IMG/VR virus record: IMGVR_UViG_2874945390_000002
Coordinates: 1-40,023 of that record
Source of the DNA: a virus
Taxonomy: Duplodnaviria > Heunggongvirae > Uroviricota > Caudoviricetes
Reading direction: 5' to 3' (one strand)
Length of the DNA stretch: 40,023 bases
Part shown: positions 12,001 to 15,000 of the stretch, piece by piece
Layout of the letters: every line of letters begins with the position of its first letter
How positions within the stretch are numbered: position 1 is the stretch's first letter
Made by a program: the position numbers

Positions 12001-15000
12001 CAGATCAAATTTTATCAGCGCCAGCGTGCTTCGCTGGGGCGTCCAGTCAGTGATGGATGGTGTGCTCACACTTTCAGGGAGAAATTCGGTGAATGGCCTG
12101 ACGGACTGAGTAACTTTCCGATGGAAATTACCCCTGAGGTAAATAACTACATCAGACACAAACTGATCCGGTTTGCCAAAGGCCACCAGCGGGTTCAGAA
12201 GGTCACTGAAAACGCACAAACAACGATTGATTTATCTCAGGAACGTGATGAACGACGTGAGATGCCGGCAGGCAGTGAGGCCTGGCGCATCATGCAGGCA
12301 AAGCACCAACTCCAGAAAAATATAAACAGTCTGAGTCAGTAAGATGAAAACAGCAGATGCAGCGAAAGGCCGCTGGCCTGAAATATTAGAGCACTTCGGT
12401 CTGCCGCCGATAACCGGAAAAAATCACTTCAAGGGTGAATGCCCGGTATGTGGTGCACGTGGCAAGTTCCGAATTGACGACCGCGACGGTGCAGGAACGT
12501 GGATCTGTGTATGTGGTAGTGGCGATGGTATGAAACTTGTCACCCTGACACAGGCGAAGCCATTTAACGAGATTTGTACCGAAATAGACCGCCTGATCGG
12601 TAATGATTACCAACGGGTTAAAATCCCGGTAACCAGCAGCGCCACCAGCTTACGCAAACGGGTATTGAGCAAGTTTTCAAAACTGGAGGCACTGCGTGGT
12701 ACATCCGGCGCAGCGTATCTTAATTCTCGAGGAATATTCAGTCTTCCTGCTGAGGCGATCCGGTTCAATGCCAGGCAGAGACACAACGGGAGTGTGTTCC
12801 AGTCTCTTTATTCACTTGCTACGGACGATAAAGGGGAGCTGTGCTATCTGCATCAGACCCTGCTTGATGGTGACAAAAAAGCAGATATCGGTAGCAGTGC
12901 AAAGCGCCTCAAATCCCTGCAGGAAGATAACTATCTGGATCACGCTCGTTCTGTAGCTATCCGCATGTTTCCTGTCGCCAGCACTCTGGGTATCGCCGAA
13001 GGCATCGAAACAGCGCTGTCAGCGCACCAGATTTATAACGTGAACACCTGGGCAACCATTAACAGCGGCTTTATGAAAAAGTTCCGCGTACCAGCTGGTG
13101 TTCTGCACCTGATTATTTTTGCCGACCGTGACGAGAACAGTGCCACCGGGCTGGCTGCGGCTTGCGAATGTGCTCATGCCAATCTGATGGCAAAGAATGA
13201 CCTGCAGCGCGTGAGCGTGTACTGGCCGGATCACGATGATTTCAACAATATGCTCATGAACGGTGATCAGGTTCGAGAGCTGGTTTTCCATAAGAAAAAG
13301 GCGGTTGCGTAATGCGTACTGATAATAACGAACATAAAGCACTATTCACCATCCCGACGGCAGCGTACAGCTCCGCCCTCGCAAACATCAAGCCCCTGCC
13401 AGAGCAACGGAGAATCACCGGGCATAAGCAGACTGATGCTTATCTTTGGGTGCTGGAGGTTATCCGTCTGAACGAACCCGCACATCTGGATGCTGCTGAG
13501 GCTGCGCTGGTGAAAATTAAAATTTCCCCAAAAGAGGCCCAGGAACGCTATTCGCGTTATCTGCTGGCGAATGGTGGTGATCCTTTCCAGATTGCTTTCG
13601 GTACCATCGGCATGGATAACCCAGCACAGGCAATCAGGATCGCCCGGGAGAATATCAAAAAAGCAGCATCAGTCAGGGCTACGTTTGGTAGCTATGAAGC
13701 AACACTCGAAGATGTGGAAGCCGAGCGAGTGATCAAGTCTTCCCAGAAATTTATCGACGATCATCTCTGGGGCTGGACTGCGGCAGAGAAAAAAGCCGGA
13801 AGCATTGGCGGCAGCCGCATGAACGAAATTGATGAACAGCGTCGGGCATTTGTTGATGGATATCGCGATGTGCTGCCTGAGCCTTATACGCTGTCTGATG
13901 TTGTTCGCGAGTTCGTTTACTGGGACTGGCTCTACAGTGTTCGCCACACTGCAACTAAAGAACAGGGCGATGAGTTTGGTTACTCTGAGCATCACGAATC
14001 GGTATATGACCGGGAGCGCTACCTTGAAAAATTGCTGGCAACCATCAAACCGGTGACACGGGCTGAAGCCGTGGAGGTGTGTCGTTGGTTTTTGGCAAGC
14101 GGAAAGGGCGAATATATGAAAGACAATGGCGCGGCGGTTATTCTTAATCTGGTTGGGGAGTGTGAATAATGAAGCTTGAGGCATCTCTAAAATACTTCAG
14201 TCCTCAGGGAATGTATATCGGCGACGATGTGAAAGGAACCTCTCCGGAACGTCTTACAGGCACCGATGTTATGGCGGCTATTGGTACCACCAGCAATCGT
14301 GAGCGGTTTGGCCTAGCGGCCTTCTTCGGGAAGGCCGGTATCAGCAAGACTGATGAGCAGATGGCAGTCCAGGCGCTGGCGCGTCACGCGATGGAAATTG
14401 CACCGAAGAATGTGCGTAAAGCAGCTGGTGGTGAATTTGGCTGGTGTATGCTGGTACTGGCGCAGTTTGCTTTTGCTGAGTATTCCCGATCGGCGGCCAC
14501 CAGCGTAACATGCCATAGTTGCAGTGGTACCGGACTAACACCCCGTAAGCAGGTCATTCGTAAGGTTTCATACCCATGGGGTAAAGCACCATATTGGGCC
14601 AGTCGCTCCCGTGCTGTTCGACCGTCAGACTGGGAGAAATGGGCAGAGGTAACGGAAGTTGTACCAGTCGTTTGCGATGTATGTAAAGGGAAGGGAGTGA
14701 TAAGTGCTAGGTGTCGTTGTGGTGGAAAGGGAGAGGTACTGGACCGCAAAGCCACAAGCGAGCGTGGTGTGCCAGTGTTTAAAATCTGCGAGCGTTGTAG
14801 TGGAAAGGGATTCGTATCTATCAAATCAGCTACTGTTCATAGAGCTATTCAAATATACATTCCAGATCTGCACCAGTCTTCATGGTCGCGTAATTGGAAA
14901 CCATTCTATGAAAAATTGATTGATATCCTGTATCAAGGTGAGCAACATGCGGCTGGAGAATTTGAGAAGGCAACGAGTTACTGATCTGAACAGCTTTGGC

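Follow-up and report, generated by a model that had tools for sequence, protein, structure and literature searches.

A facultative early gene between primase and antiterminator in a defective lambdoid prophage, and its wider protein family

The subject of this study is gene X, a reading frame of 285 codons that lies between the primase and late antiterminator genes of a defective lambdoid prophage. The prophage makes up a stretch of 40,023 nucleotides (IMG/VR record IMGVR_UViG_2874945390_000002, positions 1 to 40,023; Duplodnaviria; Heunggongvirae; Uroviricota; Caudoviricetes), which we refer to in its entirety as the window. We find that gene X is a genuine, conserved and facultative early gene of this prophage. 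Its product is an ordinary copy of a catalogued and uncharacterised family, and is not new in itself. Most of the distant relatives carry DNA-binding domains ahead of the same core, and we tentatively propose that this core may be the part of a DNA-tethered early regulator or adaptor that acts as effector or binds a partner; the window copy would be a version acting without its DNA-binding head.

Gene X and its place in the early operon

The gene, its junctions and its neighbours are laid out as follows.

10684-12342, plus strand: SF2 DEAD/ResIII helicase (Pfam ResIII, DEAD, Helicase_C)
12344-13312, plus strand: Toprim primase (Pfam Zn_Ribbon_Prim, DUF7146, Toprim_3)
13310-13314, plus strand: TAATG junction of primase stop and gene X start, read directly from the sequence
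13312-14169, plus strand: gene X, ortholog of Fels-1 STM0902, PHROG 6204 (reading-frame call, profile match, gene order, substitution rates)
14155-14171, plus strand: GGGGAG and TAATG junction of gene X stop and Q start, read directly from the sequence
14169-14984, plus strand: Q-type late antiterminator (Pfam Antiterm, E 3.5e-51)

A preliminary description, made from the sequence alone, had drawn a 285-amino-acid frame at 13312-14169 (plus strand), and the open reading frame (ORF) list of the window contains exactly this frame, with an ATG start. The same description had the gene coupled to primase through an ATG overlapping the primase stop and running up to the start of a Q-like gene, and both points hold. 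At 13310-13314 (GCGTAATGCGT) one A is common to the primase TAA and the ATG of gene X, and at 14167-14171 (GAATAATGAAG) one A is likewise common to the TAA of gene X and the ATG of Q, the Shine-Dalgarno sequence of which (GGGGAG, 14155-14160) falls within the final codons of gene X. The Pfam domains agree with the neighbours that had been named, primase upstream and antiterminator downstream; the helicase-primase pair is also matched in PHROG (PHROG 16 and PHROG 510), and tblastn puts the window Q at 29% identity to lambda Q and P22 gp23. A simple pattern scan of the plus strand returned no convincing terminator-like site in the primase-Q interval, its sole match being a short, weak stem (5 bp, 13097-13109) within the primase gene. 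In Salmonella, the orthologous genes STM0900-0903 were identified as a single co-regulated operon upon mutagen treatment (PMC2225428). Gene X is part of the rightward early transcript, and its translation is coupled to that of both primase and Q.

Gene X is more than a chance reading frame, as follows from its relatives, its full-length profile match and its pattern of substitution. At E<=1e-3 we recovered 392 database proteins, the best of them 95% identical and likewise of 285 amino acids. The PHROG profile phrog_6204, annotated as function unknown, is matched end to end (E 1.2e-182, residues 1-285 on positions 1-285 of a 286-position profile). The ratio of nonsynonymous to synonymous substitution (dN/dS) against the Fels-1 ortholog is 0.10, with 0.11 for the helicase, 0.08 for primase and 0.09 for Q; gene X is thus constrained by purifying selection at the same level as the genes that flank it. 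The earlier impression of a protein-like product is confirmed by these results. Orthologs include STM0902 of Salmonella phage Fels-1 (84% identity), proteins of Escherichia phages phi467 and vB_EcoS-611R1 (both 96%) and one of Cronobacter phage ENT39118 (78%). They measure 285-286 amino acids, have the overlapping junctions seen in the window, and are annotated as 'hypothetical protein' or 'helix-turn-helix domain-containing protein'. The order helicase-primase-X-Q is constant among deposited phages with full-length orthologs, and the whole block recurs in at least 38 E. coli genomes and at least 22 IMG/VR loci.

Curated family databases were silent on the protein. There was no Pfam family even at E<=1, no PADLOC defence family at E<=0.1 (this library holds defence models rather than anti-defence ones), and nothing better than E 0.085 among PDB sequences, whether the search was made with the single sequence or with a 44-sequence profile. 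In NCBIfam no model rose above noise, the only match being the RelB/DinJ model NF008412 (E 0.11). A RelB/DinJ antitoxin was dismissed as noise, with a score of 12.8 bits against a cut-off of 96, an E of 0.3 to RelB in the PDB and no adjacent toxin gene. Full-text literature searches turned up no functional study of STM0902, of the PHROG family or of the phage relatives. The preliminary description could place the protein in no family; this stands for Pfam, NCBIfam, PADLOC and PDB sequences and falls for PHROG, where the protein belongs to PHROG 6204 and has STM0902 as its ortholog. Clear homology to a known protein family, which would have overturned that description, did not emerge as far as function goes, PHROG 6204 being itself without an assigned function. 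The protein had also been called acidic, which is true only mildly of the whole (isoelectric point (pI) 5.6); the C-terminal 115 residues have a pI of 4.8 and the middle part one of 9.0.

Conservation of the neighbourhood, proposed at the outset as a check, was found to be real yet incomplete, with helicase-primase-X-Q recurring and some phages with the same pair lacking X. Escherichia phage Fostie, whose helicase, primase and Q are respectively 89%, 81% and 71% identical to those of the window, goes from primase directly into Q, and Klebsiella phage ST16-OXA48phi5.3 and the IMG/VR loci L071, L108, L118 and L135 have the same helicase, primase and Q without X. Since the same three genes occur in these phages without it, X must be dispensable cargo rather than a required part of the replisome. 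Other cargo is found in the slot: NinG with a DNA methyltransferase, two hypothetical genes with NinH in Stx2a phages, and a 103-amino-acid gene in phage LMessi, which was considered as a relative of X and proved unrelated. The primase-Q interval thus behaves like the nin region of lambda, with X as one optional item. The nin genes (NinB/Orf, NinG/Rap, NinH, Ren and others) lie in the same position, between replication genes and Q, and are just as facultative and mosaic in their occurrence, but their proteins have no sequence relation to gene X (no Pfam match at E<=1), so that position alone is common to the two.

Elsewhere the slot shows signs of decay. One IMG/VR copy of X (L142, 2645-3498) is frameshifted after residue 184 in an otherwise intact module, and in L096 and L100 X is preceded by only the last ~91 residues of primase.

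A shared core, its predicted fold and its DNA-binding heads

Structure prediction had been suggested as a way of placing the protein. The AlphaFold2 model, built on 44 diverse family members in a trimmed alignment, is confident (mean predicted local distance difference test (pLDDT) score 88.5, predicted template modelling (pTM) score 0.83) and has fifteen helices and no strands; the protein is thus predicted to be two-lobed and all-alpha. Its parts, with their coordinates in the window, are these.

13321-13356, plus strand: N-terminal motif DNNEHKALFTIP, residues 4-15 (family consensus DNxxHRxLFxLP)
13399-13761, plus strand: N-terminal helical lobe, about residues 30-150 (motifs LPxQxxITGxxxxDAxLW, KxxPKExxxRY, FGSYEA...E)
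13762-13818, plus strand: variable linker, about residues 151-169 (lower confidence, length varying in the family alignment)
13819-14166, plus strand: C-terminal helical module, residues 170-285 (common to short Klebsiella-phage proteins, PHROG 2887 and 19083)

The N-terminal motif, in which N5 and P15 are nearly invariant among 44-91 family representatives, packs against the core in the model (pLDDT 82-89). The helices of the N-terminal lobe, at residues 39-142, are modelled with pLDDT 89-97, and P30, T36, G37, D42, W46, A62, Y80, F125, G126 and E138 are invariant or nearly so. Across the linker region (residue blocks 151-180) pLDDT drops to 62-70, and this stretch has the highest nonsynonymous rate of the gene (dN 0.25, against 0.07-0.09 elsewhere). 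In the C-terminal module P191, W204, L207, R211, P247, E252 and L280 are conserved, and two further profiles match it: phrog_2887 on residues 170-285 (E 5.9e-22) and phrog_19083 on residues 210-285 (E 7.3e-40). A Foldseek search of the model against the PDB and BFVD returned no relative (best E 0.83 in the PDB and 1.0 in BFVD, template modelling (TM) scores below 0.2), so that no fold relative placed gene X. Foldseek being a local aligner, any relative at the level of single domains should in our judgement have come to light as well. The top match was AimR, and an RRNPP/AimR-type receptor was set aside at E 0.83, probability 0.11 and TM 0.17.

Short forms of the protein divide it in an informative way. 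Klebsiella phage KPP5665-2 gp43, annotated as an 'HTH domain protein', and its relatives (PHROG 2887, 158 amino acids) occupy the same slot between primase and Q. They are 42% identical to the window protein over its residues 172-285 (tblastn, seven Klebsiella phages) and lack the whole N-terminal lobe, about residues 15-170. The N-terminal motif is retained in them as NNLQHNQFFTI, which suggests that this peptide has a role of its own, such as docking on the C-terminal module or on a partner, because it is kept where the lobe is lost. In the wider form DNxxH-R/K-x-L-F-x-L/I-P the motif lies at 13321-13356 in the window and at 5851-5890 in locus L002. Its loose similarity to a clamp-binding peptide (H-R/K-x-L-F-x-L/I-P) was discounted, in that the invariant N and P are not clamp-motif residues and the peptide is packed against the core. 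The C-terminal LNLVGECE is also kept even in the 158-residue form, and conservation of LVGECE may stem in part from the ribosome-binding site of Q embedded there.

The wider family is large. Across 1.84 billion representatives, an exhaustive HMMER search returned 137 clusters at 50% identity, and a word-indexed search from a member of the Pseudomonas group returned more than 900 clusters at 90% identity; the cluster names in the Pseudomonas subfamily were all 'hypothetical' or 'sigma-70 region 4 domain-containing'. The hosts are beta- and gamma-proteobacterial prophages and small integrase-primase-helicase islands. All share a core of ~265 residues with the motifs DNxxHRxLFxLP, LPxQxxVTGDxEVDAxLWL, KTPxKELExRY, ARFGSxEA..TPAE, PxTLxDCxxELxYWxxLYxLR, IxPRxxxEA and ILxNL.

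Most of the distant members have an extra N-terminal segment that ends just before the first core motif and is mostly a helix-turn-helix (HTH) of about 45 amino acids. By a motif-based count, this extension reaches at least 35 amino acids in 46 of 68 classifiable representatives and is almost absent from 17 of them. A member-by-member scan of 91 representatives found curated-family matches in these N-terminal heads only. The Pfam matches comprised 21 to Sigma70_r4_2, 16 to HTH_23, 12 to Sigma70_r4 and 8 to HTH_7, with single cases of an AlpA-like head and of Bro-N (P0155, E 8.8e-12); NCBIfam added ECF-sigma region 4 and ParB models, and one head type resembles a ribbon-helix-helix by eye, these classes being assigned from weak Pfam and NCBIfam matches (E 1e-4 to 1e-7, mostly under the curated cut-offs) together with visual judgement.

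The HTH-bearing relatives, from Pseudomonas, Azotobacter, betaproteobacteria and some enterobacteria, have the same core and motifs at 24-50% identity and are linked to the window protein by reciprocal tblastn (E 1e-14 to 2e-19). They differ from it in carrying the DNA-binding domain of ~45 amino acids, which the window protein lacks, and in residing mostly in small integrase-AlpA-primase-helicase islands rather than full phages. Like all members of the Fels-1 type, the window protein begins 3 residues ahead of the first core motif, with the primase gene upstream. Most relatives bear the NCBI name 'helix-turn-helix domain-containing protein'. For the window copy, which is without a DNA-binding head, this label is unfit, and we rejected it on finding no Pfam match at E<=1, no NCBIfam HTH model and no head region at all. 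A sigma-70 family factor was likewise rejected: the relatives match region 4 only, in their N-terminal part, and not region 2 (core binding and -10 recognition), the core is without a Pfam match, and the window protein has no region-4-like part; nor was there a sigma factor among the best Foldseek matches listed for the model.

Neighbourhoods across the family and the prophage setting

For context across the family we used 44 loci from one-genome-per-species bacterial assemblies, together with metagenome and IMG/VR loci, in which genes were called crudely and neighbours clustered. Among the loci with enough upstream sequence, 23 of 47 have a primase or helicase no more than three genes upstream, always on the same strand, and further loci have helicase families that the neighbour clusters missed. 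As a rule the family gene comes last in the replication module, irrespective of helicase type. Its neighbours may be an SF2 helicase with a Toprim primase, as in the window; a Toprim primase with a DUF927 helicase, in many Pseudomonas islands; a D5_N/Pox_D5 primase-helicase; a DUF3987 helicase; a small DnaB_C/AAA_25 helicase; or DnaB with a DnaC-looking Walker-A (AAA+) protein, the latter recognised by eye. In one enterobacterial phage (L004) the order is DUF927 primase-helicase, SSB, X with HTH, and Q.

Many loci are small islands ordered integrase, AlpA, primase, helicase and, further on, X. Members of the Pseudomonas type were absent from 50,697 deposited phage genomes. A plasmid collection held only five family matches, all without HTH and all Fels-1-like prophage insertions in megaplasmids, which rules out a link to plasmid replication. 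We infer that the Pseudomonas-type islands fit satellite-like integrative elements better than autonomous phages. One such island recurs in Pseudomonas (loci L019-L037, for example L021, 3903-9436), with a primase of 296 amino acids, a DUF927 helicase of 599, a small ORF, a PHROG 7215 protein of ~244 and X with HTH of ~314. Behind X stands either a tail assembly gene resembling lambda gpI (PHROG 32) or an ORF of 1,121 amino acids that is tape-measure-like by eye, on account of its size and its repetitive, Ala/Gln-rich sequence. Tail genes right behind a primase-helicase module are unusual, and may mark tampering by a satellite with the tails of its helper.

Downstream of gene X, the Q type of the window exists with two alternative central segments (residues ~122-172), set between conserved CxxC pairs: YPWGKAPYWASRSRAVRPSDWEKW in the window and Fels-1, and KHPGIFDADGAEVVAP in Fostie and Klebsiella phages. 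The N- and C-terminal parts remain 80-90% identical across the two types, and the central segment looks like a swapped cassette inside Q. Directly past Q, a promoter and terminator scan found promoter-like hexamers (TTGACT-18-TACTAT, 15024-15053, plus strand) and, after them, a strong terminator (15093-15116, plus strand), an arrangement typical of a late promoter and terminator that depend on Q. An antisense ORF of 248 amino acids (15121-15867, minus strand), without a Pfam or PADLOC match, lies between Q and an IS110 element; its slot, past Q and antisense, is a common place for cargo genes. Two tRNA genes follow the Q terminator within 16192-16338 (plus strand), and the IS110 element cuts in beyond them.

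Further features of the prophage are listed below.

3409-6875, 16364-17560, 22616-23962 and 30514-31860: insertion-sequence (IS) regions (two IS3-type, one IS110, two IS4)
8026-8514 and 8618-9160, minus strand: pair of neighbouring HTH_3 (XRE/cI-type) genes, ahead of the early operon
10073-10693, plus strand: HNH homing endonuclease, 206 amino acids (PADLOC HEase, E 1.6e-23), overlapping the helicase start
38212-40023, minus strand: IpaH-type effector ORF, LRR_TTSS and NEL (novel E3 ligase), running off the right end of the window

The IS3-type copies stand in tandem (HTH_Tnp_1 and rve ORFs), and the IS110-family element lies just past the Q region. One IS4 copy splits the tape-measure gene (21025-22605 and 24039-25535) and the other interrupts the J tail-tip gene (27910-30450). 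Between Q, which ends at 14984, and tail gene Z at 18594 there are no lysis, terminase or head genes. The HNH gene seems to have been inserted recently ahead of the replication genes, as similarity to E. coli prophage relatives starts only at ~10671. One of the two HTH_3 genes is presumably the prophage repressor, and the ipaH-type gene and the IS load indicate that the host is most likely Shigella or a close relative.

Possible roles of the gene X protein

The preliminary description offered two functions, a replication accessory factor or a regulator. As an accessory factor the protein would act with the helicase and primase, for instance in loading, as an adaptor at the origin or by bringing in parts of the host replisome, and would be made together with primase through translational coupling. 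The overlap of its start with the primase stop speaks for such a role, as does its place: in at least 23 of 47 loci the family gene follows replication genes immediately and on the same strand, and it is found beside six helicase types; the DNA-binding extensions of the relatives could, moreover, target an origin. The claim fails for any required part, however, since phages with 81-89% identical helicase and primase go from primase to Q without X. These same phages (Fostie, ST16-OXA48phi5.3, L071, L108, L118 and L135) exclude a loader that must co-occur with its helicase, and a DnaC/lambda P-type loader or AAA+ accessory was excluded by the lack of any Pfam or NCBIfam match and by an all-alpha model without strands. 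A partner-specific protein would not be expected beside at least five unrelated helicase families. The protein has no Walker/AAA+ motifs and no replication-family match, and an origin in or beside the gene was discarded, there being no iteron-like arrays but only scattered 12-18-nt chance repeats. The frameshifted copy in an otherwise intact module (L142) also counts against it, and we consider an accessory role unlikely. Another possibility is that X is cargo, a moron-like effector for host takeover, exclusion or anti-defence that binds a host or competitor protein, here with no tethering to DNA. A facultative gene in a slot of varied cargo (methyltransferase, NinG, NinH, unrelated small ORFs) would suit this, as would the acidic C-terminal module, a short Klebsiella form reduced to the N-terminal peptide and that module, and a predicted fold without a match among solved structures. 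PADLOC gave no match, its scope being defence as noted above; DNA-binding fusions are prevalent on the same core and are not known to be typical of anti-defence proteins; and the conserved location where replication modules end argues for a role internal to the phage. Taken together, these points make a cargo effector a decidedly unlikely explanation.

The tight association of X with Q invites a different idea, namely that X modulates the timing, stability or loading of Q. Enterobacterial X always abuts Q, both behind SF2 helicase and primase and behind the DUF927 and SSB module of L004, the ribosome-binding site of Q lies inside gene X, and in a first sample full-length X was paired with one of the two Q central segments in 7 of 7 phages. 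This last correlation was lost in a larger sample of 80 IMG/VR loci with the window-type Q, of which 49 had the allele-A Q without X upstream; we therefore dropped co-variation as a functional link, and the first pattern mirrored lineage rather than functional coupling. Q also stands directly after primase in several phages, and no Q-like gene was recognised in the Pseudomonas and betaproteobacterial islands that were examined. A dedicated regulator of Q is highly improbable on these grounds. Finally, the window copy could be a relic, left over in a dead prophage and without current function. The prophage is full of IS elements, of which IS4 has broken up both the tape-measure and the J gene, its helicase start bears an inserted HNH endonuclease gene, and the lysis, terminase and head genes are missing between Q and Z. 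Against this, the ORF is unbroken and full-length, with 95-96% identity to its orthologs in complete phages; neither coupling junction has been lost, and the repressor-like genes and early operon look intact. We regard a relic as very unlikely.

Our preferred reading, possible though short of probable, is that the core supplies the effector (partner-binding) function of an early regulator or adaptor that is tethered to DNA. The conserved core would bind a partner, while the heads would tether the proteins of the wider family to DNA, and the whole would act at about the point where replication gives way to late functions. On this view the window protein would be a naturally occurring form that lacks the DNA-binding domain and works via protein contacts alone. 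The role as regulator or adaptor is putative, as is any partner. The regulator of the preliminary description gains indirect support in that most of the distant members do have an N-terminal DNA-binding domain on the core, and fails for the window protein, which has none. Domain-shuffled phage regulators exist with Bro-N, KilA-N and similar DNA-binding heads, and likewise combine a constant C-terminal module with interchangeable heads; in the X family, however, the constant module is another, undescribed domain, and the window protein is headless.

Several considerations weigh against this preferred reading. The term regulator is taken wholly from the looks of the relatives, because the window protein has no DNA-binding domain and has an acidic C-terminal module. 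The head classes themselves come from weak matches and from inspection by eye. Replication initiators and antitoxin-like proteins show the same pattern of changing DNA-binding domains on an unchanging core, and a location behind the replication genes may be a matter of modular genome order and not of function. The predicted fold is unmatched by solved structures within the PDB and BFVD, which is the extent of that comparison. The window prophage is defective, and this copy may no longer act.

A bolder generalisation, which we hold to be rather doubtful, is that the ~265-residue core is an undescribed and structurally novel effector domain. It would define a widespread class of early regulators or adaptors, in temperate phages of proteobacteria and in satellite-like primase-helicase islands, with interchangeable heads, acting at the hand-over from replication to late functions, with headless versions working in trans.

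The window copy alone matters little, being one more catalogued hypothetical protein in a dead, IS-riddled prophage. The family to which it belongs is noteworthy in that it is large and under selection, has a confidently predicted fold outside the PDB and BFVD and a fixed place at the close of replication modules in prophages and satellite-like islands, and is covered by no curated family, and it presents a reasonable target for research on early regulation in phages and satellites. Should the core indeed turn out to be the effector part of a regulator tethered to DNA, the set of tools by which phages and their satellites time their development would include a new module, and the 'helix-turn-helix' label that has spread to copies without an HTH would be corrected.

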